From a virus (Duplodnaviria > Caudoviricetes): a DNA stretch of 33,878 bases. The stretch's first letter is position 1; each line of letters starts with the position of its first letter. This document shows, in pieces, positions 3,529 to 29,638 of the stretch. Where the stretch lies: positions 1-33,878 of the IMG/VR virus record IMGVR_UViG_3300037851_000846. One strand, given 5' to 3'. The notes beneath the pieces were generated by a model. That model did not search any database. It was not told the DNA's origin and saw only the letters and a list, made by a program, of their open reading frames with translations. The position numbers were made by a program, and so were the translations under genes.

Positions 3529-5046
3529 TCAGGGATCGCGGAACCGGCAGAAATCCGGGGCGGCGCGCCAGATGAACGGCCAGAGGGACGCCAGCCAGTC
3601 GCGCGGGGTCAAGCGTACCAGGTGGCCGGTGTCCAGCGGGTTGCCGGAAATTTCGATCCGGGCAAACAGGCTGTGGATCACGTCTTTCTGCTCCTGGTAG
3701 TCGAGCGCGCCCAGGTCTTGGCTGAGGGCGCGGAAGCGGGTGAGCTGTGGCTGGATGTCGTCCCATCCCGGCGGCAAGGCGGCTTGGGCGGCGCGGAGCT
3801 GGGCGGCGAGGGTATCGGAGGCGGCCAGGTACGCGGCCAGGGGCAGGTCGCCGGCCAGGTGCCGTTGTAGCAGGCGCGGCTGCTGCGCTTCCAGGCGCAG
3901 CAATTCGCGGTGCGCGGCGGCGCCGGTGGGTGAGATGGCCGCCAGCGCGGCGTGGAGCGCGGCCGGCAGGCCGGGGGTGTCCAGCGCGCCCACCCACGCG
4001 GTAAAGCTGCGCTCGTAGCCGTCGGCGGGAATCCAGGCGGGGATTTTACACCGCGCGGCGTGGCGATAGTAGCGCACGCCCTCCTGGCGCGCGGTGGTGA
4101 GCGGCTGGTCGCAGTTGTGGCAGACGAGCAGCGGGGTGAGCAGGTAGCTGCTGCGCGGGCCGTGCGTGGTGTAGGCGCGCGCGTGACGTTCCAGTTCGGC
4201 CCCCACCCGCCGGCACAGGTCGGGCTCGAGGATGGGGTCGTGTAGGCCGGCAATGACTTCGGCCGGGTGATCCTTCTGGCGGCCCAGGGGCAGGTCGCCG
4301 GCGTAGAGCCGCCAGGCGGCCAGGATGCGCCGCACGTCGTCCCGCGTCCATTCCCGCGCCACGCCCTGCCGGTTTTTGAAGCGCCAGCCGGCGGCATTGA
4401 GGGCGGCGGTCAGGCTGTCGTAGGTGTAGTCGCCGCCGGCAAACCACTCGTAGGCCTGCTGCAAGGCGGCGTGGTAGGGGCGTTCCCGCAGCGCGCCGGC
4501 GGCGTCGGTCAACCAGAGCGTGTCGGGGTCGGGTTGCAGGCAGCCCTTGATGCGGATGCAGCCAAAGGGGATCGTGCCCCAGTGCCAGCCCAGCGCGCGG
4601 CGCTTGTACTCGATGTTGGCGGTGACGCGCTCCGAGGTTTTGCGCGCCTCCATCTCGTACATACTGACCAGCACCGTCGCCAGCATCCGCCCGCCGGCCG
4701 TGCCGGTGTCCACCATGTCGTGGACCAACACCATGCGTTTGTGCAGCTTTTCCAGTTCGTCCACGAATTCCAGGAACTCGCGCGTGTTGCGGTGGATGCG
4801 GCTCAGGTCGTAGGCGGCGATGCCGGCCACGTCGGCGCGCGGCAGTTGGGCTTTGAGTTGCAGCCAGGCCGGGCGGCCTTCTTCGGAGAGGCCGCTACGG
4901 TGGCCCTCCGCGTCTACGTACCATTCACAGGCGAACCCGCGCGCCTCCACCAGCGCACGGATGGCAGCCCGCTGCTGATCCGGGCTGACGCTGGCGTTTT
5001 CGTCGGGCATGTAACTACGGCGGATGTAACAGAGTAAGGTTTGCAT
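3529..5046 (-). CDS. Large serine recombinase (integrase)
   Basis: Start at ATG 5046 gives MQTLLCYIRRS (catalytic Ser); SG...RPAW, DLSRIHRN, long helix E (EARKTSERV), recombinase domain, Zn ribbon CHNC, coiled coil. Confidence 0.93.
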   Translation of the reverse strand: MQTLLCYIRRSYMPDENASVSPDQQRAAIRALVEARGFACEWYVDAEGHRSGLSEEGRPAWLQLKAQLPRADVAGIAAYDLSRIHRNTREFLEFVDELEKLHKRMVLVHDMVDTGTAGGRMLATVLVSMYEMEARKTSERVTANIEYKRRALGWHWGTIPFGCIRIKGCLQPDPDTLWLTDAAGALRERPYHAALQQAYEWFAGGDYTYDSLTAALNAAGWRFKNRQGVAREWTRDDVRRILAAWRLYAGDLPLGRQKDHPAEVIAGLHDPILEPDLCRRVGAELERHARAYTTHGPRSSYLLTPLLVCHNCDQPLTTARQEGVRYYRHAARCKIPAWIPADGYERSFTAWVGALDTPGLPAALHAALAAISPTGAAAHRELLRLEAQQPRLLQRHLAGDLPLAAYLAASDTLAAQLRAAQAALPPGWDDIQPQLTRFRALSQDLGALDYQEQKDVIHSLFARIEISGNPLDTGHLVRLTPRDWLASLWPFIWRAAPDFCRFRDP

Positions 5047-5168
5047 CCTACCGGTATACCCCCAGCCGGCGAATAGGCAAACCGGGGCTTGGGCGCGGAG
5101 GTGCAGGGGTGCGGGGGGGCGTCGCATTGCTATGGCGCCAGTCCTTAAGGGTAAGTTGCGTCTTTTTC

Positions 5169-5196
5169 GTGACAACTTGTCCAGGTGCGGTATAAT
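5169..5196 (+). promoter_or_regulatory. Sigma70 promoter of the three-gene cassette
   Basis: GTGACA, 16-bp spacer, TATAAT. Confidence 0.6.
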
Positions 5197-5228: not shown

Positions 5229-5531
5229 ATGACTGAGAAACAGCTATATCGCGTGCCGCTGCGGTGGGTCGTCGATCCCCACCTGGTGAGCCGCTATGCG
5301 AATAACGTGATTGTACAACACACACCGGATGAGTTCGTGTTGAATTTCTTTGAGGCGCGGCCGCCCCTACGATTGGAGGCGGATGGGCAACTCCCCGAAG
5401 TGATTGAAGCCTATTGTGTCGCCCGCATTATCCTCAGCCCCGCCCAAATGGAGAGTTTGCTGACGGTGCTACAGGAGAATTTTAATGATTTTTTACGTAT
5501 CCAGGAGATGGCAGATGAAGACGCGCCATGA
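5229..5531 (+). CDS. DUF3467 family protein
   Basis: YANNVIVQHTPDEFVLNF...VARIILSPAQMESLLTVLQEN signature; GGAGGAG SD. Confidence 0.8.
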   Translation: MTEKQLYRVPLRWVVDPHLVSRYANNVIVQHTPDEFVLNFFEARPPLRLEADGQLPEVIEAYCVARIILSPAQMESLLTVLQENFNDFLRIQEMADEDAP

Positions 5532-5814
5532 CCCCCAGGCGCAACGCCGGGCCGCCGTGACTGGGCGGGATATGTCGGCCTGGTTAGCGGTGAGTACGGC
5601 CACCGCTCGCTACTTTGCGCTATCCCCCACCGCGGCTGACGCGGCGCCTTTAACGGCTTTCCAATGGGAGATTCTGCGGGATAACCGCGGGCCATACCTC
5701 CCGGAACCGGAAGATGAGTTCCTGGCGCATAGTCCCTTATTGCCTAAATTGTTAGCGCAGGCCTTACACCAACCGATCCCGGATGACTGGCGGCAGGCGC
5801 TGCGTGACTTGTAG
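5515..5814 (+). CDS. Hypothetical protein, candidate antitoxin
   Basis: AGGAG SD before ATG 5515; overlaps both neighbours; ends DDWRQALRDL directly upstream of a RelE-type gene. Confidence 0.6.
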   Translation: MKTRHDPQAQRRAAVTGRDMSAWLAVSTATARYFALSPTAADAAPLTAFQWEILRDNRGPYLPEPEDEFLAHSPLLPKLLAQALHQPIPDDWRQALRDL

Positions 5815-6160
5815 AGTGGTATTTGGCGCCACGTTTGCCCGCGATCTGAAACATCTGGAACGGCGTTATCCCCATATCCGCGCCGATATGGCGGCGGCAC
5901 TGGACTTGCTCCTGCGCGTGCCGGAAACCGGCGTCATCATTCCCGATGATTACGGTATGGGTAAACTCCGGGTGCGCAATCGGGATGCCCGGCATGGCAA
6001 AAGTGGCGGCTATCGCGTGATTTATTACCGGCTGGGGACGGTGTGGTATTGTCTGGCCCTCTATGCCAAAGCCGACCGGTCAGACATTACCCGGTATGAG
6101 TTGCAGCAATTGTTATTTGAGATCGAGCAATTAGAGAAATCTGGATCGCCACCGGAGTAA
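5804..6160 (+). CDS. RelE/HigB-family toxin
   Basis: FARDLKHL...KLRVRN...GKSGGYRVIYY...LYAKADRSDI motif; likely GTG start at 5804. Confidence 0.85.
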   Translation: MTCRVVFGATFARDLKHLERRYPHIRADMAAALDLLLRVPETGVIIPDDYGMGKLRVRNRDARHGKSGGYRVIYYRLGTVWYCLALYAKADRSDITRYELQQLLFEIEQLEKSGSPPE

Positions 6161-6235: not shown

Positions 6236-6255
6236 ATTATTTCCCAGGAAATAAT
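6236..6255. promoter_or_regulatory. 20-bp palindrome copy 1 (Noc-site/parS-like)
   Basis: ATTATTTCCCAGGAAATAAT; identical copies at 9691, 16121 and (inverted) 16618. Confidence 0.8.
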
Positions 6256-6275
6256 CTGCCCCCCACTTTCCCCAC

Positions 6276-6349
6276 AGAACACAAGTTCTATATTGACAAG
6301 ATCGGAAGTGGGCTTATAATCAGTATAGTTGCGTAAGAATTTACGCAAC
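6276..6349 (+). promoter_or_regulatory. Early-operon promoter with LexA-type box and downstream inverted repeat
   Basis: AGAACACAAGTTCT (6276-6289); TTGACA (6293-6298), 16 bp, TATAAT (6315-6320); GTTGCGTAA-N4-TTACGCAAC (6328-6349). Confidence 0.85.
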
Positions 6350-6459
6350 ATTAACAGGACATAAAAGCGAACACCGGGGGGGTTGCAGCCCGTCCCGGTG
6401 TTCTAGCCCAACAGCCAGCGCATTGGCGGTCAGGTTACCCTCATTATAGCACTCTTTGA

Positions 6460-6492
6460 GGCCCCCCGCAGCGTTCTGGCGGGGGGCTTTTG
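6460..6492 (+). terminator. Intrinsic terminator in early leader
   Basis: GCCCCCCGC...GCGGGGGGC-TTTT before the first gene. Confidence 0.7.
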
Positions 6493-6540
6493 ATTTTGGA
6501 TTTCAGATTTCCGATTTTGGATGGCAAACAGGAGGCTAGG

Positions 6541-6822
6541 ATGACGCAGACCGAGAGTGTACAAATTTTGGCGACGTTGGAGACGCTGCTCCCGCAATAC
6601 CGGGAGCGCTGCGCGAAATTCTATGAGACCCACGACGCGGGCAGCGACCCCCTTGTGGCGAATCGCTGGATTCACCGGGAATTGATGGAGCGGTTTGGGG
6701 TGCAGCCGGTGCTGACGGAGAGCGCGAAGATTCGCCGCCGGTTGACCATCGCCCGCACCGGGGTGCAGATCCTCCTCAAGGGGCGCGCCACACAGTCCCG
6801 TAAGTCCAAGCTGTGGAAGTGA
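6541..6822 (+). CDS. Hypothetical protein, first gene of early operon
   Basis: AGGAGG SD before ATG 6541; the upstream extension in the ORF track is a heptamer repeat. Confidence 0.7.
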   Translation: MTQTESVQILATLETLLPQYRERCAKFYETHDAGSDPLVANRWIHRELMERFGVQPVLTESAKIRRRLTIARTGVQILLKGRATQSRKSKLWK

Positions 6823-6826
6823 CGGG

Positions 6827-7267
6827 ATGAGCGGTTATACCTTCCCCGCCACCTGGCCGGAGACCGGCCCGGTGATTTTGCAAAAAGTTCCCCCGGACAA
6901 CGCGGCCCCCCAGCGCGACTGCCTGGAATTCATCACCTGCCGCGGCGGGCGCTTCTACATCGCCATTGATGCGGGGCGCCCGCGCCCGGACGGGATGACC
7001 TACCAGGAAGCCCGCAGTTGGGCGAAATTCGGCGCAGTGGCATTTGATACCCGGCCCTATAGTTGGAACGTTTGTGCTACGTTCTACGAGCCACCGCCGC
7101 GCTGTGTGGCGGTAGTCTCGGCAACGCGCGGGACGTGTTTTGTGAAGTTGCGGGACGGCGCGCCCCTCCCCACCACGCTAGCGGAGTTGGCGACGGCGGC
7201 GGCGGAACGGCCCGGGCGGTGGACGCCGCAGGGGGAGGTGGTCGGAGAGTTGCGAGTTGCGAGTTAG
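6827..7267 (+). CDS. Hypothetical protein
   Basis: Operon-like spacing; GC3-rich codon use. Confidence 0.65.
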   Translation: MSGYTFPATWPETGPVILQKVPPDNAAPQRDCLEFITCRGGRFYIAIDAGRPRPDGMTYQEARSWAKFGAVAFDTRPYSWNVCATFYEPPPRCVAVVSATRGTCFVKLRDGAPLPTTLAELATAAAERPGRWTPQGEVVGELRVAS

Positions 7268-7346
7268 GAGTGAGGAGTGAGGAGTGATGGGGTAGGGGTT
7301 AGGGGTTAGGGGTTTTTATGTTTTACGTTTCACGTTTTAGGGGAGG
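7249..7346 (+). repeat. Cluster of heptamer tandem repeats
   Basis: GTTGCGA, GAGTGAG, GGGGTTA and TTTTACG/TTTCACG units; 7320-7346 recurs identically at 8383-8409. Confidence 0.8.
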
Positions 7347-7351
7347 CGACG

Positions 7352-7669
7352 ATGTTTGACTTTCAGAATATCCGAGTGGTGGAAAGTGTGCGCGTGCCTT
7401 CGCCGGCGGAAGCGGCGGAGTTGCGGGCGCAACTGCGGGCGGCGCGGCTGATGCGCGATCTGCTGGCCGTGATGTTGGATGAGGTGCGGCAGCAATTGCA
7501 GGCGGAACGGCGGCTGTGTGACGCGCTGGCCGCCGATCTCGAACGGTGGATGGGCGCGGGCGCTGCGGACACAGCGCCCACGCCCCAGGCAGGGGAGGGT
7601 GGCAAACCTGACGCAATCGTATACCCGTTGGCGGGCAGTGTCAAGGGGGATAGCGAGGCAGCGGCATGA
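7352..7669 (+). CDS. Hypothetical coiled-coil protein
   Basis: GGGAGG SD; Leu/Glu/Arg-rich helix. Confidence 0.7.
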   Translation: MFDFQNIRVVESVRVPSPAEAAELRAQLRAARLMRDLLAVMLDEVRQQLQAERRLCDALAADLERWMGAGAADTAPTPQAGEGGKPDAIVYPLAGSVKGDSEAAA

Positions 7670-8325
7670 ACGCGATCCCGCAGACCGGGGCGACCCGGTA
7701 CGACTTCACGCGCCCGATCCCGGTGGACGCTGCCCCATGGCGCATCCAGGCGCGCGACGCTAACCGGCGCGTTATCCAGGATGAGGACGCCGGCGCCGGC
7801 TTCGCGTTGGAAATGGCGCTCCAGACGCTCACGGCGGCGCGGTGGGTCGTCTCCGCCTGGATTGCCCAACGGCACATCCGGGCCTATCGCGGCGACACGT
7901 TGCCGGTCACGCGCATGGACTTCCGCTGGACGGTTGGGCGCTGGACGGTGCAGAAATGGCTGGCCGGGTGGACGGCCTCCACGCAGCCCAACTACACCGA
8001 GGTCAAGCCGGCGGGCTGGGAGGCGGCTGAAGCGGTGCGTTGGTTACAAGCCCACCGGCCCCAGGATGACGCGCAGATCGAAGGCTGGCGGTATGAGACC
8101 GTGGGCGCGCACTTCATCCGCGCGTGGTACGGCCCGCGCCTGCCGGTGCGCACCAAAGCGCAGATCATTCGGATGCGCGACGCGCTGAAAGACTACCGCA
8201 ACTCAGAACTGCTGTACGTCCAGCGTGAACCGTGGCGGGTCTTACCGCGCCCGGCCTGGCTGCCGGCGGATGTGTCGGTGATGGAGATAGAGCGGGACAA
8301 GCTGGACCTGGCCTATCTCTTGTGA
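7666..8325 (+). CDS. Hypothetical Trp-rich protein
   Basis: ATGA overlap with the upstream gene; 219 aa. Confidence 0.7.
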   Translation: MNAIPQTGATRYDFTRPIPVDAAPWRIQARDANRRVIQDEDAGAGFALEMALQTLTAARWVVSAWIAQRHIRAYRGDTLPVTRMDFRWTVGRWTVQKWLAGWTASTQPNYTEVKPAGWEAAEAVRWLQAHRPQDDAQIEGWRYETVGAHFIRAWYGPRLPVRTKAQIIRMRDALKDYRNSELLYVQREPWRVLPRPAWLPADVSVMEIERDKLDLAYLL

Positions 8326-8413
8326 GATTCTTCGCAAACTGCGCTCAGAATGACGAATGACGTTTTACGTTTCACGCATCACGTTTTACGTTTCACGTTT
8401 TAGGGAGGCTACG

Positions 8414-9586
8414 ATGACATTCAAGAAGATGGTACGCACGCAGTATCCCCCGCGCCTGTGGGCGCTGGTGGGCTTTCCGGGGGGCGGCAAGAGCACGTTC
8501 GCGGCGCAGATGCGCGGGCCGCTGCTGCCCATTGACGCGGATCAGCGGTTCGGCGAAGTGCGCCCGCTGACCGCGAGCGAAGTTTACCAGTTGAGCGACG
8601 TGGCCGCCGACCACACCGACGCGGAGCGGGTCGCGGCGCTGCTGGCGGAGGGGATGCCGGGCAGCGACGTGCGGACGATCATCGTGGATAGCCTGACCAC
8701 GATCATCGCGCCGCTGGTCACGCGCGCGCTGATTGACAACGACGCCGAGCGGAATAAGAACCGGATGGCGGCCTTCCGGGAAAAGGCGTTGACCATGCGC
8801 CTGCTCCAGGACAGCATCACCAAATGGGGCTGTGACGTGCTGTGGATTTACCACCTGCAAACCGGGCGCGACGCCGGCGCGAAGGAGCAGACGACGGCCA
8901 CCGTGAGCAAGACGGAGCTGGCCCGCCTGCTGCGCTCGCTGAACCTGCAACTGGAAATCGTGCAGGACGGCGCGCGGCGGGGCGTCAAAGTCGTGTGGGC
9001 GCGCCGGGGCCGGGCCTATCCCGCCGTGCCGGTCCTGTGGGATGACAGCGGCAAGTGGGCGGGGATGCCGGAGAAGATCGAGGCGGCGGTATACGACGGC
9101 CTGACCCTGGCCGACCAGGAGCGCATCGCCAGCGCGACGCCGACCAGCTTCCCCAACGATGAAGCCGCCATCGCCTGGGGGCTGGCGCAGGGTTGCTTCG
9201 CGGCTCTCCCGCACGCGCGCAACGCTTACGAGAAGCTGAAGCGCGCGCATCCCGACGCTAACGGCGATCTGGCGTCTCTGTGGGTGGCCGACGTGCAGGA
9301 GCGGGTGAAGGGGGAGGGGGAAAATGCGGAGGGGGAGCGGGGGAGCGGGGGAGCGGGGGAGATGCCGCCGCCGCCCACGCCGGAACCGGCGCCGGAACCG
9401 CCGACCGATTTGCCGCGCGGCCATCTGACGGCCAATGATTTCTGGCAGGATTTTTACCGGCTGAAGGCCGAGGGGCGGCTGGGCAGCCAGGCCGACAAGC
9501 TGAAGACGGCGCCGGAAGTCAAAACGGCGCTGCGCTCAAACGACTGGGCCACGGCGCATAAGTGGCTGATGGCGCAGGTGCGGTAG
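8414..9586 (+). CDS. AAA_24/Sak4-like recombination ATPase
   Basis: Walker A GFPGGGKST, IDAD, Walker B TIIVDSLT; GGGAGG SD before ATG 8414. Confidence 0.8.
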   Translation: MTFKKMVRTQYPPRLWALVGFPGGGKSTFAAQMRGPLLPIDADQRFGEVRPLTASEVYQLSDVAADHTDAERVAALLAEGMPGSDVRTIIVDSLTTIIAPLVTRALIDNDAERNKNRMAAFREKALTMRLLQDSITKWGCDVLWIYHLQTGRDAGAKEQTTATVSKTELARLLRSLNLQLEIVQDGARRGVKVVWARRGRAYPAVPVLWDDSGKWAGMPEKIEAAVYDGLTLADQERIASATPTSFPNDEAAIAWGLAQGCFAALPHARNAYEKLKRAHPDANGDLASLWVADVQERVKGEGENAEGERGSGGAGEMPPPPTPEPAPEPPTDLPRGHLTANDFWQDFYRLKAEGRLGSQADKLKTAPEVKTALRSNDWATAHKWLMAQVR

Positions 9587-9690
9587 GCACAGCATCTCAT
9601 ATCCCGCTGCTCCGCGCGTGACGTGAAGCCACGGGCCGGAAGAACGCTAACCAAGCGCAAGGATACGCCGTTAGACGGCGGGGCGGCGGG

Positions 9691-9710
9691 ATTATTTCCC
9701 AGGAAATAAT
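9691..9710. promoter_or_regulatory. 20-bp palindrome copy 2, 18 bp upstream of parB
   Basis: ATTATTTCCCAGGAAATAAT. Confidence 0.8.
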
Positions 9711-9728
9711 GGCAACAAGGAGCAGACT

Positions 9729-11327
9729 ATGATCAGAGTAGAGTTGACCCGTATTGACGACAATCCGTATCAAAGCCGCCTGGAATATGGCGATCTGACC
9801 GACCTCGCGGTCAGCTTCCTGGAATTATGCGGCGCCCTGCCGGAGACCTCCGGCCTGCTGCAAGTGCCCCTGGCGCGCCTGGTGCTCGACGGGCGCGTGG
9901 TGGACCCCCTGCCGGGGGACGTGGCGGCGTTCCTGGCGGAGACGCCGGCGCGCGTGGAATTGGCGATAGGCCACCGCCGTAAGCGGGCGTTCGCGCAATT
10001 GGCCGCCCGCGCGGGCGCGGTCGCGCAGGACTTTACCACCTTCCCGGTCACCCTGGCCGTGCTGGACGACCAAGCGATGGCGGCGCTGGCCTGGGAAGAG
10101 AACGAGAAGCGCAAGGACATTTCCGACGTGGAGCGCGCCGTCGCTATCGAGAAAGCGCTCCACGATTTCGCGTGGACGCAGGCGGAGATCGGCAGCCGGT
10201 GGGGGATCGCGCAGGGCACCGTCTCCAACCTGCTGCGGCTGTTAGCGCTGCCGGAGAAGATCAAGGGGCTAATCTGCGCGGGGACGATCACCGGGCGGCA
10301 CGGCCGCGCGCTGTTGCCGCTGGTGGACATGGGCGAGCGGTGGGAAACTTTCGTTCACATGGTCGAGCATGGCGGCTCGGGCGAGTATGTGCCGGTGGCC
10401 GAAGTAGAGCGGCGCGTGACGGAATATGTGCAGACGCACACCTACGATCTGACCGAAATCCCCTGGGATGAAGCGTGGGATCCGCGCCTGGCCGAAACGC
10501 AGCCCTGCGCCACCTGTATGGCAAAAATCAAGGTGGGGCGGGAAACGCGCTGCACCCAGGCCGGGTGTTACACCGCCAAGACGCGCGCCTACAAAGTTAC
10601 GGTCAAAGGCCCGGCTAACGCGGTCAAGTCCTACCACCTTTACCGGCGCGAGGGGTGGCGCGAGACGCCCGATCCCGGCTGGGCGACGTGCCTGGGCTGT
10701 GGCCGCACTGCGCGCGACCTGGAAGCCGCGCGCTACGGCTCGCGCATCTGGCTGCGCAGCGGCGGCAATCACATCTGCCCGCAGTGCGCGGCGCTGGGGC
10801 AGTTGCGGGCGACGGAGCCGGAGAGGGGGAGAGGGGGAGAGGGGGAGACGGGGAGAGAGGGAGCGGGGGCGGAGTATTTCCCGGCGACGCCGCCGCCGGC
10901 ATACGCAGAAACCGGCGAGCCTGGGCGCTCACTGGCCGGGGTGTTTGCTGAGGGGGCTGACGCTCCCGGCGATCCGGACGCTGGTTTCACGGCGGGGGTG
11001 GATGAGGATGGGGATGGGTTTGGCAAGGATGACAATGCCGCAGCGGAGGCCCCGGCGTCAGCGCCCCAGGCGGCCACCAGTCCGACGTTACCTGCACCCG
11101 GCGCGCATGTAGTCTATACCGGCACGGCGATACTCACGACGCCGCCGGCGCGTCCCGCCGTGTTGACGGCGCGCATTATGCCCGGCGCGGCGCTGGCAGC
11201 GCGGCGGGTGATCGTGTCCATCGCCGACGAGGGGTTGATGCCGGCGGTGCTGCGGTCAGGGCCGTTTGAGAATATCGGGATATTGATCGGGGAGGCGCTC
11301 CAGGCGCATTTCCCGGAGATGGAGTAG
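9729..11327 (+). CDS. parB: ParB/Spo0J-family CTPase (PRTRC-associated) with Cys-rich C-terminal extension
   Basis: NPYQSR, GLLQ, GHRR, ENEKRKDIS, HTH TQAEIGSRWGIAQGTVSNLLRLL, RHGRALL; later CxxC pairs and an acidic linker. Confidence 0.9.
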   Translation: MIRVELTRIDDNPYQSRLEYGDLTDLAVSFLELCGALPETSGLLQVPLARLVLDGRVVDPLPGDVAAFLAETPARVELAIGHRRKRAFAQLAARAGAVAQDFTTFPVTLAVLDDQAMAALAWEENEKRKDISDVERAVAIEKALHDFAWTQAEIGSRWGIAQGTVSNLLRLLALPEKIKGLICAGTITGRHGRALLPLVDMGERWETFVHMVEHGGSGEYVPVAEVERRVTEYVQTHTYDLTEIPWDEAWDPRLAETQPCATCMAKIKVGRETRCTQAGCYTAKTRAYKVTVKGPANAVKSYHLYRREGWRETPDPGWATCLGCGRTARDLEAARYGSRIWLRSGGNHICPQCAALGQLRATEPERGRGGEGETGREGAGAEYFPATPPPAYAETGEPGRSLAGVFAEGADAPGDPDAGFTAGVDEDGDGFGKDDNAAAEAPASAPQAATSPTLPAPGAHVVYTGTAILTTPPARPAVLTARIMPGAALAARRVIVSIADEGLMPAVLRSGPFENIGILIGEALQAHFPEME

Positions 11328-11347
11328 GGAGTAGGGAGTAAGGTCAG

Positions 11348-11794
11348 ATGAAAATTTACAAGTACAACGACTATGAGTACAAAGACGAGGCTGGGGAGTT
11401 TACGACGGCAGATGTGAAACAACAACTGACCCAGTATTTCCCAGAGATTGCCAACTGTGTGACCGAGGAAAAGCAGCAAGGGGCGGATACGGTCGTCACC
11501 TTCGTTAAGCGGGCGGGGACGAAAGGACAAGGTGACGGGGTGACAGGGAGAGAGGGTGAGCGGATGCCGGTATTTTTGCGGGTGGGCGATGACCGCTGGA
11601 TCAACCTGTCCAACGTGCTGGACATCAACGCAGAATGTGTCGTGCCTGACTGTATTACGCTGGATGGCGCTACGCGGGTCGTGTTGTGCGGCGCCGAATC
11701 CGAGGCTTTTTTAGCCTGGCTGACGGATCACGACTGGGATATTCGGGACTATAACGAACCGGCGGCGCCGGCTCAGGCACATGACCCCGCGTGA
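11348..11794 (+). CDS. PRTRC protein C (prokaryotic ubiquitin-like) fused to a C-terminal domain
   Basis: Residues 1-60 match the pattern YxY..D....T..VK..L...FPEIAN...TFVKRAGTKG; the frame continues 88 aa past GTKG. Confidence 0.85.
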   Translation: MKIYKYNDYEYKDEAGEFTTADVKQQLTQYFPEIANCVTEEKQQGADTVVTFVKRAGTKGQGDGVTGREGERMPVFLRVGDDRWINLSNVLDINAECVVPDCITLDGATRVVLCGAESEAFLAWLTDHDWDIRDYNEPAAPAQAHDPA

Positions 11795-12050
11795 CGTGCT
11801 GACGCGGTTGGATGCGCTGCCGCCGGTGGACTTGCCGGCGGTGGCGTTGGTCCTCTGGCTGTGGGAATGGGATGGGGAGACGCTGACCGGCGGCCCGCTC
11901 CATGTCGCCAATATGGCGGAACTCTTCGCGGCCGGTGAGCAGGCGCAGGCGGCCCTGGCGCGCTATGCCGAGGCTGCCGGGAGGTTGAAGGAACGATGTC
12001 TGACGCAATGGCAACCCAGCCCGGCGGTTGCGCCGCCGGTGGGCTTCTGA
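11781..12050 (+). CDS. Hypothetical protein within PRTRC cluster
   Basis: Overlaps both neighbours; helical composition. Confidence 0.65.
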   Translation: MTPRDVLTRLDALPPVDLPAVALVLWLWEWDGETLTGGPLHVANMAELFAAGEQAQAALARYAEAAGRLKERCLTQWQPSPAVAPPVGF

Positions 12051-12913
12051 ATTTCCAGGCAGTCGAGCGCCTGGGGCGCCGCTTCCGGCTGCCGCGTTAC
12101 AGCGCGCTGGCGGAGGCGTGCGCTGACCTGGCCGCGCTCACGGTCATCGCCCCGCTGGAACGCGCGTTTGCCGCCATGTTCGACGCGCCGGAAACGCCGC
12201 TACTGAGCGTGGTAGGCCGGGAGGAATGGCTACTCGGCAACGTCGAGCGGCATCTGTTCCCGCTCGATTTAGATTACGTCAACCAGATTTTTTATAGCGC
12301 CGAAGAGTCGGTTTTGTTGGGGGCGGTCCCCTTTGACGCCGCCGGCATCCCCTGGGAGGTGTGTGGCATGGGTAATATGCCGGCCGGTATCGAGGCGCTG
12401 TACGCGCTGACCTACCGCTCGTTGACGCCCTTGGCCGGCATCACCGACGTGGCCGAGCTGGGCGACTGGCTGGTCGAGACGGATGACGAGGTCATGGAGT
12501 GGCTGGCCGAGCGCGACCTGGTGGGGAGCGGCTGGGATTACCTGGCGATCCTGGCGGCGTTGCAGGCGCTGCCCGCGCCCTTCGATGGCCTGGCCGCCGG
12601 CTACCGCCGCCTGGCGCGGCAATCCGGCAACGTGTTTATAGACACCCTGCCCGGCAGTTGGCTGCCGGAATATGGGATTTTTGGGGCGGATGAGGCGGAA
12701 TTCGGCTGGACGCCGGAAGACTTACGCACCCTGGCGGGCGCGTGGGCGGAGATTACCCCGGCAGCGCAGGCGTGGCAGCATTACCAGGACTGGTACTTGG
12801 GCGCACCGGGGGCGGAAGAGATCGTGATTAAGACGCTGTGTGCGGCGCTAGGGTTGGCGCTGCCGGAGGAAAATGCCGATGACACTGACGACGAATTTGC
12901 CGCAGGTGCATAA
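11996..12913 (+). CDS. Hypothetical acidic protein, positional equivalent of PRTRC protein F
   Basis: 305 aa, acidic and Trp-rich; lies between Ubl and E2 as F does. Family call is by synteny only. Confidence 0.6.
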   Translation: MSDAMATQPGGCAAGGLLNFQAVERLGRRFRLPRYSALAEACADLAALTVIAPLERAFAAMFDAPETPLLSVVGREEWLLGNVERHLFPLDLDYVNQIFYSAEESVLLGAVPFDAAGIPWEVCGMGNMPAGIEALYALTYRSLTPLAGITDVAELGDWLVETDDEVMEWLAERDLVGSGWDYLAILAALQALPAPFDGLAAGYRRLARQSGNVFIDTLPGSWLPEYGIFGADEAEFGWTPEDLRTLAGAWAEITPAAQAWQHYQDWYLGAPGAEEIVIKTLCAALGLALPEENADDTDDEFAAGA

Positions 12914-13577
12914 CGCGCTGGACGTGGCGCGCTATGGGCTGAATCCCGCGCAGGATTATCAGCAGTTGCGCGGGCGGCTGGATGTGTACGACGAAGCGCT
13001 GCTGTGGACGCGCTACCTGGACGACGAGCGCACGTCCACCTACGAGGTATCCCCGTTAGACGTGGCCGCGACCTTCGCCGATCTGCCGCTCGTGACTGGC
13101 ATCCTGCCCCCGAATTGCCTGTGGTATCGGCAGACGGGCGGCGTGCAGGTGGGGTTGTACGTCGCGCCGCAAGCGTGGACGCTGCACGATCATGAAGATA
13201 CCGTGTTCGCGGACGTCTCCCTGCCGGGGCTGGTGTTTTGCGGCAGCGGCGGGGAGTATCGCGTCTTCGCCGTCAAGCACCGCCCGGTGGACGCCAGTGA
13301 GAGGCTGTTCTATGCGCCCTTGCCCAACGTCCATAACGACGGCAAGATTTGCAAAGGCAATGCGCCCTTCCCGGCCTGTACGCTGCGCACGGTCAATGCG
13401 GCGCTTAAGCTGTTTATGGTGGAGAGCGCATTCAGCGATCACCTGCGCGGGGGCCGGTGCAAATCCTATCCCGACGATGTGCGCGGCCTGTGGGCGACGC
13501 TGGCCGGGCAGGCGGAATTCCCGGAGAGCGAATTGCTGCCGGCGAAGCTGAAGGTGGGGGACTTATGGGCGCTATAG
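12873..13577 (+). CDS. PRTRC protein B / prokaryotic E2 family D
   Basis: GILPPNCLW, LPGLVF, VFAVKHRP, LFYAPLPNVHNDGKICKGN (catalytic Cys), SAFSDH. Confidence 0.88.
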   Translation: MPMTLTTNLPQVHNALDVARYGLNPAQDYQQLRGRLDVYDEALLWTRYLDDERTSTYEVSPLDVAATFADLPLVTGILPPNCLWYRQTGGVQVGLYVAPQAWTLHDHEDTVFADVSLPGLVFCGSGGEYRVFAVKHRPVDASERLFYAPLPNVHNDGKICKGNAPFPACTLRTVNAALKLFMVESAFSDHLRGGRCKSYPDDVRGLWATLAGQAEFPESELLPAKLKVGDLWAL

Positions 13578-14140
13578 CCTCGCCGGTGGCCTACACGATC
13601 TATCAGGGCGGCGCGCCGAGTGTGCCGCCGGGTAAGAGCTACGCCTATTTCCTGGCCGGGAACGGCGTCTTCAAGCTGGCCGAGTCGTCCTACCTGCACG
13701 CGGTGATCCCGGTCGCGGTGGGGCGCGTGGCCGGGTTGCCGCCGTTGGCGCCGGAGGTCGCGCTGCGGGTGGACATCCCCGCGCAGTTATGGGATCACGT
13801 GCTGGCCGATGCGCGCCGCGTGGCCTGGGAGACGCCGCGTGAGGCGATGTATCACGTGCGCGTCAACGGCAGGGGCGTCAGCGTCGAATCGCCGGCGCAG
13901 ATCGGCACTGCCGGACATCTGGCATATCAGGGCGGCGCCGGGGCCGACGTGGTGCTGGACGTGCATTCGCATTGTGAAATGGGGGCCTTTTTCAGCGGCA
14001 CCGATAACGCCGACGAGCAGGGCTTCAGGATTTACGGCGTGATCGGGCGCATCTTCACCCGACCAGAAATCCGGCTGCGCGTGGGCGTGTATGGGGATTT
14101 CTGGCCGATAAAACCGGAGGAGCTATGCAAACCGTGGTAG
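13565..14140 (+). CDS. PRTRC protein A / JAB (JAMM) metalloprotease
   Basis: YFLAGNGVF, PREA (Glu), DVHSHCEMGAFFSGTDNADE (HxH-x7-S-x2-D), RVGVYGDF; start ATG 13565. Confidence 0.9.
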   Translation: MGAIASPVAYTIYQGGAPSVPPGKSYAYFLAGNGVFKLAESSYLHAVIPVAVGRVAGLPPLAPEVALRVDIPAQLWDHVLADARRVAWETPREAMYHVRVNGRGVSVESPAQIGTAGHLAYQGGAGADVVLDVHSHCEMGAFFSGTDNADEQGFRIYGVIGRIFTRPEIRLRVGVYGDFWPIKPEELCKPW

Positions 14141-14691
14141 AGATGTTTGGGGCTGGTTGGCGCGAGGTAGATGCGACGTGGCTGGATTATCCGCAGCGGA
14201 ATCAATATTTTACCGAGGCTTGGACAATGCAGGAACGGCGTACATTGGGGATGGGCGCTACGGCGATTCTGAGAGCGTTGTGCCGCTTGGATGAGGGGCA
14301 CATGCAACGCTACACCGATGGTCGGTATCGGCCACTCCGGGCCGGGATGTTCACGCTGGCCGATATGGCGGCGCTGTTTGTGGAGTGGCTACGCGCTGAG
14401 CGCTATATCTATGGATTCGGGCGCGGGTGTGGTGTTCTGATGCGGCAGTTTTTCGCACCCTACCTGGATGGTGACGAGACACCCCGCGCGCCGACAGCGA
14501 TCCCGTATCCGGTGGATGTGCCGCAAATCTTCGCGGCGATTATGGATGCGGTCCAGGCCGTCGAACGCCTGCCGGTGCAGCACGCGGTAGGCAGCGCGCC
14601 GCACATGGTGATGGATCAGTTATTGCAAAACATTGGGACGTTGGCGCGGGCGGGGTACGAGATCACGCGCCAGGTGGGGATGACGTTATGA
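14125..14691 (+). CDS. Hypothetical protein between JAB and E1
   Basis: GGAGGAG SD; overlaps both neighbours. Confidence 0.7.
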   Translation: MQTVVEMFGAGWREVDATWLDYPQRNQYFTEAWTMQERRTLGMGATAILRALCRLDEGHMQRYTDGRYRPLRAGMFTLADMAALFVEWLRAERYIYGFGRGCGVLMRQFFAPYLDGDETPRAPTAIPYPVDVPQIFAAIMDAVQAVERLPVQHAVGSAPHMVMDQLLQNIGTLARAGYEITRQVGMTL

Positions 14692-15476
14692 TTACCCTCA
14701 CGCACGAAAAACGCTATCGTCTCCAGATCGGCGCCCCGGATATTTACCGGATTTATCTGGTAGGCTGCGGTGGGACGGGCAGCTTCCTGGCGCTGCACCT
14801 GGCGCGGCTGGCGTATCACGTCCGCGAGCGGTATGGGCGGGAAGTCCGGCTGACGTTCATTGACCCGGATCGGGTGGAAGATAAAAATATCGGGCGGCAA
14901 AACTTCTGTCCAGCGGAGATTGGGGCGTATAAGGCGCACACGTTGATGCGGCGCTACAATGCGGCCTTCGGGCTGGACATCCAGGCGGTCTGCGCGCCCT
15001 TCGCGTCGAGTATGACGACCGGGCGCGTCGCGTTCCGGCTGCTGGTCGGCGCGGTGGATAACGCGGCGGCGCGGCGCGAGTTGCAGACGGCGGCCACGGT
15101 GATGGGCGGCGCGACGTGGTGGCTGGACTGCGGCAATCACGAACACGCCGGGCAGGTGCTCCTGGGGAATCGCGCCGATCTGCGCGCGCCGGAGATCGCG
15201 CTCGGTTTCTGTGGCGGCCTGCCGCTGCCGAGTGTGCAGGCGCCGGAGCTGCTGGAAGCGAATAGCGAATTACGAATGACGAATGGCGAGAGCTGCGCGG
15301 AGTTGGCGCTCCGCGACGCACAGAGTTTGATGGTGAATCAAATGGCGGCGGGGTGGGCGGCGTCTTATGTGTACCGGCTGCTCATCGGTAAGGATTTGGA
15401 TGTGTACGCGACGTACTTTGACCTGGTGAGTGCGGCGGCGCGCTCGCTGCCCATCGTAAGACCGGAGGCCGTATGA
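14688..15476 (+). CDS. PRTRC ThiF-family E1-like adenylyltransferase
   Basis: LVGCGGTGS, DPDRVEDKNIGRQNF, K, GAVDN, WLDCGN, GQVLLG, SCAE (Cys), QSLMVN. Confidence 0.92.
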   Translation: MITLTHEKRYRLQIGAPDIYRIYLVGCGGTGSFLALHLARLAYHVRERYGREVRLTFIDPDRVEDKNIGRQNFCPAEIGAYKAHTLMRRYNAAFGLDIQAVCAPFASSMTTGRVAFRLLVGAVDNAAARRELQTAATVMGGATWWLDCGNHEHAGQVLLGNRADLRAPEIALGFCGGLPLPSVQAPELLEANSELRMTNGESCAELALRDAQSLMVNQMAAGWAASYVYRLLIGKDLDVYATYFDLVSAAARSLPIVRPEAV

Positions 15477-15907
15477 GTAGTTGTCAGCTTTGTGGTAAGC
15501 CGATTGAGAACGACCAGGTGTTCGGCAATCCAGGCGATGTGCTGTGCTGGACGTGCTGGCGTGACTTGCTGGATGAACCGGAGAGTTACCCAGAAATCCA
15601 CTGCGCCATGTCGCATCTATGGATTTCTAACCAAAAGCCCGCCGAGTGGCCGGCCATCCCCGCCGACGTGGCCGTGTGTCCGATTTGTCGCGCGCCGGTG
15701 GAAATCGTGGAGATCAATGAATGGGAAGTTAAATCTCGGAAAGTCACGGATGACGGGCTAAAGATTGACTGCACGACTGCCCCGGATATAGATAGCGACG
15801 GGTGGGAAGATTGGCATCGCACGCACTGGTCAAGGCCCTACGTGGATTGGTTGCCGGTGGAGAAAAAGGGGCGGGCGTGGTTCAATCAGCATTACCGCAT
15901 CCGTTGA
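15473..15907 (+). CDS. Cys-rich (Zn-finger) hypothetical protein
   Basis: CQLC, CWTC, CPIC; GGAGG SD; ATGA overlap. Confidence 0.7.
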   Translation: MSSCQLCGKPIENDQVFGNPGDVLCWTCWRDLLDEPESYPEIHCAMSHLWISNQKPAEWPAIPADVAVCPICRAPVEIVEINEWEVKSRKVTDDGLKIDCTTAPDIDSDGWEDWHRTHWSRPYVDWLPVEKKGRAWFNQHYRIR

Positions 15908-15911
15908 CTTG

Positions 15912-16021
15912 GGGTGACCGGGGTCACCCTACCGGTCACTTCACCGGTCTCCCCGTGATTTGAGGGGAAGAACGCCGGTCTCCCCACCGGTCAACTTGCC
16001 GGTCTCCCCACCGGTCACCCC
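15912..16021 (+). repeat. Iteron-like 12-bp-period repeats plus palindrome
   Basis: CCGGTC at 15932, 15944, 15975, 15987, 15999, 16011; palindrome GGGTGACC-GG-GGTCACCC at 15912-15929. Confidence 0.8.
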
Positions 16022-16047
16022 AGGGAATCGGGCATACATAAGGGGAA

Positions 16048-16091
16048 ACAGGATTAGCATGATTGACAGGATTAACATGATTGACAGGATT
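16048..16091 (+). repeat. 18-bp tandem repeat, about 2.4 copies
   Basis: ACAGGATTA(G/A)CATGATTG twice, then ACAGGATT. Confidence 0.85.
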
Positions 16092-16120
16092 GGGGATAAA
16101 TAGACTGGCGGATGGCCGGA

Positions 16121-16140
16121 ATTATTTCCCAGGAAATAAT
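16121..16140. promoter_or_regulatory. 20-bp palindrome copy 3
   Basis: ATTATTTCCCAGGAAATAAT. Confidence 0.8.
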
Positions 16141-16192
16141 TTCAATTTGGTGTAAATTCGGTTATTTATGTCAAAATGCGCCATAAATTCAC

Positions 16193-16220
16193 TTGCTTAG
16201 AACAGATGTGCGTATATACT
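16193..16220 (+). promoter_or_regulatory. Putative late promoter with imperfect LexA-type box in the spacer
   Basis: TTGCTT, 16 bp, TATACT; spacer contains AGAACAGATGTGCG. Confidence 0.6.
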
Positions 16221-16226
16221 AGGGGT

Positions 16227-16424
16227 ATGATGCCGGTAGAGCAAATCGTAGCGGTCATTAAGGACGAACTGGAAAAGCTCGTCAACGCTGGGCACTGGGG
16301 CGAGGTGATTTTTCGCGTGCCTTTGAAGCACGGCGACCCGCAACAGATCGCTATCGGGTACGAAAAAACGATTAAGACTGCACCGGCCACTGGATTATTA
16401 CCGACTACTACCGCGCGCCCCTAA
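16227..16424 (+). CDS. Small DUF2292/YezD-like protein, probably leaderless
   Basis: WGEVIFRVPLKHGDPQQIAIGYEKTIK resembles the YezD G-x-V...G...QI...K pattern; ATG starts 7 nt after the end of the -10. Confidence 0.6.
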   Translation: MMPVEQIVAVIKDELEKLVNAGHWGEVIFRVPLKHGDPQQIAIGYEKTIKTAPATGLLPTTTARP

Positions 16425-16458
16425 AGCGCGCGGTGTGTATTTTGGCCTGACTGAGCGA

Positions 16459-16504
16459 GAACGCCGGGGCTAACGGATTGCCGTTAGTCCCGGCGTTTGT
16501 GTTG
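16459..16504 (+). terminator. Long hairpin/terminator upstream of virion genes
   Basis: GAACGCCGGGGCTAACGG-ATTG-CCGTTAGTCCCGGCGTTT-GTGTTG. Confidence 0.7.
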
Positions 16505-16617
16505 CTATGAAACGTTTACGCTGTCTGGGCGCTAAGGTGTGGGGCTGGCTGTATCTGGCATGGCGCAGGATACAGCGCCGACCCTTGCGCCGGTGGGAAT
16601 GGCGGGATACGGATGAA

Positions 16618-16637
16618 ATTATTTCCTGGGAAATAAT
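16618..16637. promoter_or_regulatory. 20-bp palindrome copy 4 (inverted), 16 bp upstream of terS
   Basis: ATTATTTCCTGGGAAATAAT. Confidence 0.8.
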
Positions 16638-16653
16638 CGGGGATTAACAGAAT

Positions 16654-17274
16654 GTGGGCGAATTATGGGAGCAGCAACCGGGCGAATCCCGGCTTTGGTA
16701 TACCCGCTTTCGGGCGTGGCTGGTTGACCCGCGCCGGTCGCTGCTCGGCGTCTACCGCGCTGAATGGGAAGCGCAGGTTAGAAAAAAGGCGCGAAAAGGC
16801 GCGAAAGAGCGCGATTTTGGCGCTACTTCCATCCCCGGCAGTTGGCAAAAAACCATTCAACGGTGGCGCTGGACGGAACGCGCCGCAGCCTACGACATGC
16901 ACCTGGACGCCCTCGGCGGCGATTTGGTGGCGCGCGCGCTGCGCGAATTGCGCGGCGAAGCGCCGGCCATCGCGCGCAAGTTGGCGACGGACGGCGTCAA
17001 CGGCACGCTCAATCGGGAGCAGATTCGGGCGGCGATGGCCGTCCTTGACCGCGCGGGGCTATCGCCTACCGCGAAGCACGAGATTACCGGGCCGGACGGG
17101 GGCCCGATTCAGCCTCGGACGGTAACGCTCGATGCGCAACAGCGGGATCGCGCCCTTTCTACACTCGCAGCCGCCCTCGGTGCTGGCCTGGTTGGCGGCG
17201 ATCCAGGAGCAAACGGCGCTCTGGGCGCCGGCCAGCCAGCCGCAATGGCAGGCGATCCTGAGTCCGGCGGATGA
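16654..17274 (+). CDS. terS: Terminase small subunit
   Basis: WEQQPGES...F..W...RSL...WRWTERAAAYD and KHEITGPDGGPIQ; directly precedes TerL. Confidence 0.75.
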   Translation: MGELWEQQPGESRLWYTRFRAWLVDPRRSLLGVYRAEWEAQVRKKARKGAKERDFGATSIPGSWQKTIQRWRWTERAAAYDMHLDALGGDLVARALRELRGEAPAIARKLATDGVNGTLNREQIRAAMAVLDRAGLSPTAKHEITGPDGGPIQPRTVTLDAQQRDRALSTLAAALGAGLVGGDPGANGALGAGQPAAMAGDPESGG

Positions 17275-24385: not shown

Positions 24386-24395
24386 GAGGCTGAAG

Positions 24396-24812
24396 ATGTA
24401 TACCGTATCGGATAACTTGTTAATCAAGCAAAACATCGCGCCGCAGGACATCGCCAGCGCCGCGACTGTAGATGGGACGGGCCAGGATTGCGCGGGGTAT
24501 GAGCAACTCCTGGTTATCGTGGAGGTGGGGCTGGCGACGACCGGCAATATCACCGTCAAGCTCCAGGAATCGAGCGACAACGGCGTAGGCGACGCCTTCG
24601 CGGACATCACCGGCGCGACTACCGGGGCCGTCGGGCCGACCGGCGACAATGAGCCGTACCTGATGGACGTGAACCTGAGCGAGCGCGAGCGGTACATCCG
24701 CGCGACGGCGACGGCCGCCGGCGGCGGCGACGTGCAGGTGGGCGTGTCGTTCGTGTTGGCGCGCGGGCGGCATCTGCCCCCCACGCAGGACAACACGGTG
24801 GTGAAAGTTTAG
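24396..24812 (+). CDS. Probable head decoration/cement protein
   Basis: Beta-rich, VKLQESSDNG...FADITGA...RYIR; immediately after capsid; AGGAGG SD. Confidence 0.7.
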   Translation: MYTVSDNLLIKQNIAPQDIASAATVDGTGQDCAGYEQLLVIVEVGLATTGNITVKLQESSDNGVGDAFADITGATTGAVGPTGDNEPYLMDVNLSERERYIRATATAAGGGDVQVGVSFVLARGRHLPPTQDNTVVKV

Positions 24813-29077: not shown

Positions 29078-29638
29078 ATGGAAACTAAACCCCTGGACTT
29101 CAATGGCCTGGTCTTGCAGGAATTGCGCAATGTGCAGACCGGCCTCACGCAGCTGACCGCGGAAAGCGAACACATCCTCAAGCAGTTGACCCGCGTGGAA
29201 AGCACGCTGGACAAGCTGGAGGCGCGCGACGACGCGCAACAGAAGGCGTTGGACGCGCTGACGCTGATGGTGCATCGCGCGGAATCCGCGCTGACGGCGG
29301 TATCGGGGACGGCCAGCGATAATGCGCGCCGGGTGCAGGGGCTAGAACGGCAGTACCAGGGGTTGACCGACAGCTATATGCAAATCAATCGGCGGATATT
29401 AGACTGCGAGCGAGAGACTGCGGAGATGTTCAAGACCCTACAAGTGCGGATTGATGGCGTGGAAGTACAGGTAGCCGCAACGGAAGCGCGCGCCGACGCG
29501 CACCGCCGCGAGTGGGAACCGTGGGCTAAGGCGCTGCGGTGGGCCGCCTTGATTATCGGCGCGCTGATTGTCGCCGCGATTGGCATCTGGCTGCTGCGCG
29601 ATCTGGCGACCAGCATTGTGAATGGGGGCTTGCCATAG
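29078..29638 (+). CDS. Coiled-coil protein with C-terminal TM helix (XhlA/holin-like architecture)
   Basis: GAGG SD before ATG 29078; heptad repeats, then ALIIGALIVAAIGIWLL. Confidence 0.7.
   Translation: METKPLDFNGLVLQELRNVQTGLTQLTAESEHILKQLTRVESTLDKLEARDDAQQKALDALTLMVHRAESALTAVSGTASDNARRVQGLERQYQGLTDSYMQINRRILDCERETAEMFKTLQVRIDGVEVQVAATEARADAHRREWEPWAKALRWAALIIGALIVAAIGIWLLRDLATSIVNGGLP

Follow-up and report, generated by a model that had tools for sequence, protein, structure and literature searches.

This report describes a set of palindromic DNA sites and an orphan ParB protein in a temperate phage, as encountered in a stretch of 33,878 nucleotides from a member of the Caudoviricetes (IMG/VR record IMGVR_UViG_3300037851_000846), referred to hereafter as the window. 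The window is the whole virus record, a linear sequence that is 56% complete, and its gene content comprises a serine integrase, a Sak4-like gene, parB, a PRTRC-like cassette of ubiquitin-like (Ubl), E2, JAB and E1 genes, and genes of head and tail. The large serine integrase (3529..5175, minus strand) marks a temperate, integrating phage; the closest named homologue comes from an Anaerolineae metagenome-assembled genome (MAG), and a close locus was found in a single genome, a Chloroflexota MAG. The orphan parB gene (9729..11327, plus strand) codes for a protein of 532 residues, and four identical palindromes lie in the part of the window that extends from 6236 to 16637.

The palindromic 20-mer ATTATTTCCCAGGAAATAAT occurs in exact copies at 6236, 9691 and 16121 on the plus strand and inverted at 16618 on the minus strand, which confirms the four copies reported in a preliminary description made from the letters of the window. 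Allowing up to three mismatches revealed no additional copy in the window, and none of 100 shuffled controls contained the 20-mer. Its conserved unit is the 16-bp core TATTTCCCAGGAAATA, one base off the site of the protein Noc, as had been stated beforehand: 15 of the 16 bases are identical to the consensus Noc-binding site (NBS), with the mismatch in the center. The consensus NBS is given as TATTTCCC-GGGAAATA in the accessible part of PMC7383237. Hidden weaker sites in the structural half of the window were considered and rejected, the top extra score being only 6.6 bits vs 32 bits for the sites. A contig that crosses the left end joins a site copy, 17 letters and base 1 of the window, in the place of the sites at 4226 and 4224 in the relatives G001 and G003, respectively (relatives carry G numbers, the window being G000); this suggests a fifth copy about 17 bp to the left of base 1. 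The sequence CATTTCCCGG at the 3' end of parB (11307..11316, plus strand) is possibly a decayed half-site, and several relatives hold a full site there. The site is often encoded in the last parB codons, as ISRE[IM] or ISQE[IM] peptides (P0019, P0021, P0023-P0025); in the window this applies to the half-site only.

The ParB protein consists of a CTPase-fold domain, a helix-turn-helix (HTH), a region with eight cysteines, a linker and a C-terminal domain. The CTPase fold starts at residue 1 (in the structure model, of mean pLDDT 84, a strand of this fold stands at residue 2) and includes the motifs GHRR (81-84) and EN (124-125). The HTH holds the residue set Q162/L168/A173/R190, the cysteines of the middle region extend from C260 to C353, and a disordered linker (372-455) is followed by the small C-terminal domain (473-531). 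The protein scores 63.7 bits with HTH_ParB (cut-off 22.6), 78.7 bits with the Noc model TIGR04285 (below the cut-off of 315) and 24.5 bits with the PRTRC-ParB model TIGR03734 (cut-off 278.6). Noc is the best match in both PDB and NCBIfam, and the top PDB matches of the model are Noc, ParB and KorB (KorB 8qa9, E 1.4e-7). Q162 (in IAQGTVSNL) and R190 (in TGRHGRAL) align with Q158 and R186 of Noc, so the Noc-type Q and R had been correctly recognized at the two specificity positions; equally, the two permissive lysines are missing, their positions being occupied by L168 and A173, neither K nor R. No cultured phage with a close homologue was found. A second, shorter ParB is encoded in G003 (29113-29499), G004 (24227-24562) and G006 (3860-4303), and in G003 and G004 its recognition helix differs.

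The relation between protein and site was explored across relatives. A profile search with the ParB alignment yielded 43 viral loci, and sites were sought with a degenerate pattern over 37 records and by de novo palindrome searches; the reversed pattern, applied as control to the same 37 records, hit three places in all. Most relatives bear their own repeated and dispersed 14-bp palindrome, with half-sites that include ATTTCC, GTTTCC, TTTTCC, GTTYGC, GTGTCC, NTGTCC and ATGTCC. Covariation was evaluated on 36 ParBs whose site is known (those of the window, of G007 and G014 and of 33 among the 43 loci), leaving out two duplicates, three short near-duplicates, five loci in which no site was found (including G107) and G012. 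In this set Q162 is accompanied by A at base 1 in 18 of 18 cases, R162 by G in 12 of 14 and by T in the other two, and A162 by a degenerate base 1 in four. Of 215 alignment columns, that of residue 162 predicts base 1 best (normalised mutual information 0.86, compared with 0.49 for the runner-up), and the covariation corresponds to the contact described for Noc and ParB, in which Q158 of Noc contacts adenine 1 and R173 of ParB contacts guanine 1 (PMC7383237, accessible part). Residue 162 changes five times on a tree from which the helix columns were excluded. The palindrome of G012, a relative with Y162, is unrelated to these and is present in 12 copies with 7-bp arms.

The rule for residue 162 was written down before the held-out data were obtained. 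For a forward test the best 80 of 184 relatives from a metagenome search were used, from which duplicates, two training copies and loci with an unparsable helix were dropped, leaving 53 new, non-duplicate ParBs. A site was present in the locus for 25 of these and absent from 28, mostly short contigs. R162 went with G in 10 loci and with G/T in one, Q162 with A in two, and the remaining pairs were H with G (five), A with T (three), P with A (one), K with T (one) and ambiguous (two); neither R-to-A nor Q-to-G cases occurred in this test. In an inverse test, 26 new contigs were found by the G-type 16-mer TGTTTGCGCGCAAACA alone; nine of them carry this ParB family, including three of the three contigs that are at least 90% complete and five of the eight multi-copy ones, and R162 was present in all eight parsed ParBs. 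Since base 1 follows residue 162 and the held-out loci bring no contradiction, the site is very likely the ParB's. On these sequence comparisons, it is highly probable that the site belongs to the phage's own ParB and, with equal confidence, that this ParB would bind it. The assignment of the site to this ParB in the preliminary description is supported: the site tracks the ParB, and the pairing of Q162 with adenine 1 holds across related phages.

Further repeats were noticed in some of these genomes. G012 (L167-L169) is a complete 58-kb phage with parA upstream of the Y162 ParB and 12-15 copies of CGGTCG-N4-CGACCG; it bears a second dispersed palindrome, TGAACC-W-GGTTCA, in nine copies often near the first, possibly a KorA/OA-like partner site. 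A second dispersed palindrome is also found in G075 (AGGTCT-N3-AGACCT at 6299, 37405, 43398, 56970 and 57203, two copies being about 100 bp or less from a ParB site) and in G080 (GCCAAC-N3-GTTGGC at 37485, 38247 and 46251). In G014, four clustered canonical parS sites (30937-31096) lie beside a tyrosine recombinase and about 1.8 kb from the Q-type ParB with Noc-like sites; this element may borrow the host ParB as well.

The site was also traced among viral contigs and host genomes. The exact 20-mer occurs in five other viral contigs, which hold 5, 6, 11, 8 and 1 sites when mismatches are allowed, the constant part being the 16-bp core. A search with the 16-mer gave 112 loci, with 10 multi-copy and 65 single-copy contigs. 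A ParB of this type is encoded on six of the 10 multi-copy contigs; G008-G010, two-copy fragments that are 30-36% complete, have no ParB match. G002, with six sites and no close ParB, was discarded as a counter-example: each of its sites corresponds to one in G003 when shifted by a constant 18,783 bp, and the contig seems to be part of a G003-type genome broken off before parB is reached. Among the 59 single-copy contigs (of 65) that could be searched, a strong ParB match was detected in three, all of which hold further variant sites, a weak one (E ~1e-9) in six and none in 50. A second viral search with a broader alignment retrieved no new records, and a profile search of genome contigs gave one Chloroflexota prophage locus and 79 weaker matches, mostly in Firmicutes. 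The 16-mer was found in one of 301 host-class genomes, the lysogen G071, and in none of the other 300. G071 has six sites: four on a prophage contig, one in DNA 89% identical to G001, and a sixth with a flank resembling a G003 site and located beside integrase-like open reading frames (ORFs; judged by eye); all six are within phage-like or mobile DNA (the C160 site by eye). The site at G071:C160 11792 (L309) shares its downstream hairpin with G003 18696, stands between integrase-like ORFs and a helicase gene, and is probably the end of a related mobile element. No account of this phage family or its sites was found in the literature searched (main texts, with few subscription papers); the datasets of PMC12704722 may include these proteins.

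Each palindrome had been described beforehand as standing at a control point. For the window this remains valid with regard to an early promoter near site 1 and the parB start at site 2, the labels 'late promoter' and 'terS' given to the surroundings of sites 3 and 4 being putative. Site 1 (6236..6255, plus strand, core 6238-6253) is about 40 bp upstream of the -35 element of an early rightward promoter; it has the same position in G001 and G003, the distance to the early -35 being 40-50 bp in G000, G001 and G003. The promoter itself, TTGACA(6293)-16-TATAAT(6320) on the plus strand (6293..6320), matches the sigma70 consensus in 12 of 12 positions and likely drives an early operon that includes parB. 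Just upstream of its -35 lies the inverted repeat AGAAC-N4-GTTCT (6276..6289, plus strand), which is LexA-box-like and kept beside the early -35 in G001 (2693) and G003 (9614); with those at 1355-1368 and 16199-16212, the window has three repeats of this type. A CI-type HTH_3 repressor gave no match in G000, G001, G003, G004 and G006, which does not prove its absence; because no CI was found, host LexA may be the induction switch of the phage. Site 2 (9691..9710, plus strand) ends 18 bp before the parB ATG, just upstream of the ribosome-binding site. Site 3 (16121..16140, plus strand) is about 60 bp upstream of the weaker LexA-like box at 16199 and of a small ORF (16176/16227-16424), and site 4 (16618..16637, minus strand) is inverted and ends 16 bp before an ORF that precedes terL. 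The consensus scan detected no sigma70 promoter near sites 3 or 4, leaving the 'late promoter' label unverified, and the ORF after site 4 (16654-17274) has no family match, 'terS' having been named only from its position before terL.

Site placement in the family was analyzed with own gene calls on 25 records, with mismatch thresholds chosen once the data had been inspected, so that a few of the sites may be false. The 141 sites comprise 98 intergenic ones, the four of the window among them, and 43 within called genes; 10 lie between convergent genes. The control-point placement does not extend to the family as a rule. The favored position is the parB start: the 80 bp that precede parB contain a site in 9 of 24 genomes, compared with 53 of the 1314 other called genes (p 4e-7), and across 34 parB loci it occurs at the 5' end in 15, at the 3' end in five and inside the gene in five.

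As for function, it is rather more plausible than not, judging from these sequences, that a KorB-like sliding clamp working without ParA loads at the sites, covers the phage DNA and tunes transcription. The parts of this proposal differ in strength: loading and sliding are probable, and the main output may well be transcriptional. The CTPase motifs are invariant or nearly so across relatives, and two copies of residues 215-532 are predicted to pair via 473-531 with a score of 0.56 (best control 0.00; 20 of 30 solved pairs attained the mark for this score, as did 1 of 23 single chains), at a run agreement of at least 13% of contacts and a partner pLDDT of at least 53. CTPase fold, HTH and C-terminal self-pairing together form the predicted outline of a ParB clamp. 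The earlier proposal of loading sites for a CTP sliding clamp is thus sustained in its site ownership and its clamp parts, whereas CTP use is a prediction; the nucleotide choice of ParB-type proteins is not readable from sequence, according to the accessible part of PMC12704722.

The sites also are more evenly spaced than under uniform placement (p<0.5 in 25 of 29 records, Fisher 6e-8, the records being related; the near-duplicate G082 was dropped, and G001 and G076 were taken as circular by choice). The window has four sites and relatives have from 2 to >10, with a median internal gap of 6.6 kb and about one site per 8.9 kb, and the 6.6-kb gap fits the ParB spread of 10-15 kb cited in the accessible part of PMC12409273. 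In the proposed mechanism, ParB would probably be made after SOS induction or infection, because parB likely forms part of the early operon, the promoter of which carries a LexA-box-like repeat, and a search for CI gave no match. It would then close at the palindrome into a nucleotide-dependent (probably CTP) sliding clamp, load at sites about 7-9 kb apart, spread over several kilobases and cover the genome. The clamp would dampen both the early promoter and the expression of parB itself, would modulate other phage promoters at long range, and may determine when early expression gives way to late. Its action would resemble that of KorB (PMC11790492, accessible part) or, with the opposite sign, that of BisD (PMC12409273).

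Several results weigh against this proposal. The Q and R counts are weakened because the ParBs are related: there are only three independent pairs on starred branches, all three in agreement (p 0.25). The held-out set has only two Q-type proteins with a site, Q being thinly sampled in the forward test because the query was R-type. A second rule, by which base 3 or 5 depends on residue 191, agreed with the training set and was dropped after it failed in five of eight inverse cases and several forward loci. In G107 (44 kb) no repeated site was found. The window ParB has a Q-L-A-R set devoid of permissive K/R, as do three others among the 18 Q-type proteins, while in the Caulobacter scaffold a permissive K/R is needed and QTAR is non-functional (PMC7383237, accessible part). 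The missing K/R is the main structural argument against binding, and also a ready test of the published model. The P motif of the protein, GHRR, deviates from GERR. A KorA- or BisC-like partner did not emerge from the analysis, which included no search aimed at KorA homologues. Family-wide, intergenic sites showed no enrichment at consensus promoters (10 of 96 vs 8.0 expected), on which ground promoter-proximal operators were rejected as a family-wide feature. Lastly, even cover is not seen in the window (p 0.71) or in G001, its closest relative (p 0.88, with one 25-kb gap); the sites of both are confined to the regulatory half, so in this sub-clade transcriptional tuning may weigh more than whole-genome cover.

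Among the alternatives, a dispersed centromere survives best and is nevertheless unlikely. Here the ParB clamp would position or segregate the excised or replicating phage circle through a ParA encoded beyond the window, a host ParA or SMC, in the manner of phage N15 or RK2. ParA is encoded in eight of 36 relatives, directly upstream of parB in G012, G078, G088 and G100; dispersed centromere-like sites have been noted for N15, RK2 and pSM19035 (PMC3235114, accessible part), and even spacing and in-gene sites need no promoter. G004 and G006, moreover, are complete, have no recombinase match and may be phage-plasmids. ParA is lacking, however, in the near-complete G003, G004 and G006, and none was found in the window, in agreement with the preliminary description and with regard to a 56%-complete fragment. 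The window ParB begins at the CTPase fold and has no N-terminal extension that could accommodate a ParA-binding motif or the membrane helix of Noc; the former is an N-terminal (L/F/I)G(K/R)G(L/F/I) in the accessible part of PMC12704722. A tyrosine or serine recombinase is present in 33 of 41 relatives, which together with the ParA count indicates that most of them need no partition system. At 41738 of G004 a site lies directly before an ORF of 323 residues, the start of which resembles ParM-type actins.

Less likely again is that the palindromes are plain local operators, with dimeric ParB repressing its own gene and nearby promoters without sliding. This would agree with the sites directly upstream of parB, with the position of site 1 next to the early -35 in three genomes, with the intergenic location of all four window sites and with the missing HTH_3 match in five genomes. 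The sites in called genes and between convergent genes, the lack of promoter enrichment, the conservation of the CTPase motifs and the even spacing all weigh against it.

The clamp could also be the DNA platform or the substrate of the Ubl cassette, either bringing E1, E2, JAB and Ubl to phage DNA, as the preliminary description suggested, or being modified by them, which is improbable. The PRTRC-like cassette (11348..15476, plus strand) adjoins parB and is not required for the sites; its genes are C/Ubl (11348), F-like (11996, named from gene order only), B/E2 (12873), A/JAB (13568) and ThiF/E1 (14688). ThiF scores 159.8 vs a cut-off of 144.75, and the A, B and C matches are below their own cut-offs. 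The gene order ParB-C-F-B-A-ThiF is that of canonical PRTRC operons, which add an E gene, and the C-terminal domain type of ParB is found in nine of the nine E1-bearing relatives (seven by HMM, G081 and G082 by eye); among the relatives without E1 it was detected only in G072. The top Atlas structural neighbour of this domain is an E2/RWD-containing protein with a TM of 0.64, under the bar like the other rows. Domain and E1 occur in one clade, however, and their co-occurrence is close to a single event; the domain gave no match to protein E and is predicted to be a self-pairing surface. ThiF/E1 is present in nine of 36 relatives (4 of 11 near-complete ones), and sites were found in 26 of the 27 relatives without E1, all but G107.

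The preliminary description had further seen in the palindrome a cis element for the PRTRC module, which was rejected as a general statement: sites track ParB and not the Ubl genes, and the five canonical PRTRC loci inspected have no Noc-like palindrome. Of four canonical PRTRC ParBs, the three with a helix readable by eye (all but L519) have R and G at the specificity positions. PRTRC protein E (TIGR03741) had no match in the window or in five relatives, and the ParB C-terminus had no profile match with five E proteins; a fusion of ParB to protein E was discarded for lack of HMM or profile support (hhalign probability 0.4%). A fold search with the C-terminal domain gave no clear match (best Z 4.6).

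It is very unlikely that packaging is steered by ParB bound at site 4, as a mark on phage DNA that terminase would recognize. Only 16 bp separate site 4 from the putative terS ORF, and a site is found at the corresponding position in G001 (33203), but relatives' sites spread over whole genomes and the one favored position is the parB start. Equally remote is a reading in which another host or phage protein recognizes the site or the site is a dispersed host repeat, an idea that the single copies in 50 contigs and the fragments G008-G010, all without a ParB match, would favor and that is countered by the change of base 1 with one ParB residue and by the lysogen sites, all in phage-like or mobile DNA; the host repeat, raised beforehand, was rejected since 300 of 301 host-class genomes lack the 16-mer.

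Several known systems resemble the sliding clamp proposed here. By analogy, the window ParB would act as KorB does at OB and read DNA as Noc does at NBS, while lying outside both the Noc and the PRTRC-ParB families. KorB of RK2 is a ParB-family clamp with palindromic operators across a mobile element, near and far from promoters (PMC11790492, accessible part), and matches the window ParB in structure (8qa9). Unlike that system, the window has another site sequence, no IncC/ParA in the 56%-complete fragment, a temperate phage rather than a plasmid as carrier, and a regulation that is only predicted. With Noc and NBS the window shares 15 of 16 bases, Q and R at the specificity positions and dispersed sites, no ParA having been found in the 56%-complete fragment, and relative G074 holds a perfect 14-bp NBS core four times. 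Noc has an N-terminal membrane-binding helix, for which the window ParB has no extension; the latter differs also in being phage-encoded and 532 residues long, with an eight-cysteine region, another C-terminus and no permissive K, and its relatives switch among Q, R, A, H and Y with matching sites.

BisD of ICEclc is likewise a ParB-like clamp with an extra domain, encoded on an integrating element, which loads at parS-like bisS sites and affects distant promoters; it differs in using two sites, compared with 4 to >10 spread sites in the window family, in being encoded behind a parA-like gene and in activating with BisC, a partner of which no counterpart was found here (PMC12409273, accessible part). 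Phage N15 combines a phage ParB-type protein with several palindromes across the genome (PMC3235114, accessible part), but it is a plasmid prophage with SopA, whereas the window has an integrase, and no ParA was found in it. The dispersed centromere of N15 has an effect on late genes. The PRTRC cassette (TIGR03734-03741) is similar in gene order, in a cysteine-rich region after the HTH and in a ThiF that passes its cut-off; it is dissimilar in that the window ParB is far under the PRTRC-ParB cut-off, no E gene was found and the three readable canonical ParBs are of R/G type. HerB/YfjB of the F plasmid, a mobile element, is a long orphan protein resembling ParB that is produced early and includes a separate module for dimerisation, and it binds host chromosomal sites (PMC13370423, accessible part), while the window site is missing from host chromosomes.

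Other features were observed in the window. Upstream of site 3 there are short CCGGTC(A/T)C repeats, partly inverted, and a doubled ATGATTGACAGGATT (15915-16021 and 16056-16090), possibly an origin or another binding array. A DUF3467 gene, a small ORF and a RelE-like gene (5229-6160), with a second near-consensus promoter (5169-5196) and a terminator just before site 1, likely form a toxin-antitoxin unit expressed in the lysogen. Tandem repeats of 7-8 nucleotides occur in gene gaps and ORFs (6480-6520, 7320-7342, 8362-8405, 9321-9370 and 10812-10872), the ParB linker included.

Orphan parB genes are common on mobile elements and few have a known site, while here the site could be read from sequence for dozens of them. 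The ParB/Noc recognition code was derived in the laboratory, and the phage ParB set tests it in nature: within this set Noc-type specificity appears outside the Noc of Firmicutes and has switched several times (the five changes of residue 162), and some of the Q-x-x-R proteins lack the permissive lysine deemed necessary in the published model. The set also offers a clean system for asking what a ParA-less clamp does for an integrating phage, and its protein-site pairs, which differ from one another, might be employed as orthogonal labels for DNA. A wider possibility, doubtful at present, is that a private ParB clamp coats the genomes of a wide family of temperate phages and that in the clade of the window it is the platform or substrate of Ubl conjugation. 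If true, each lineage would rewrite its evenly spaced site sequence along with one helix residue, which would give it a self-mark or a chromatin unshared with host or rival phages, and PRTRC-type cassettes would have a first concrete job.

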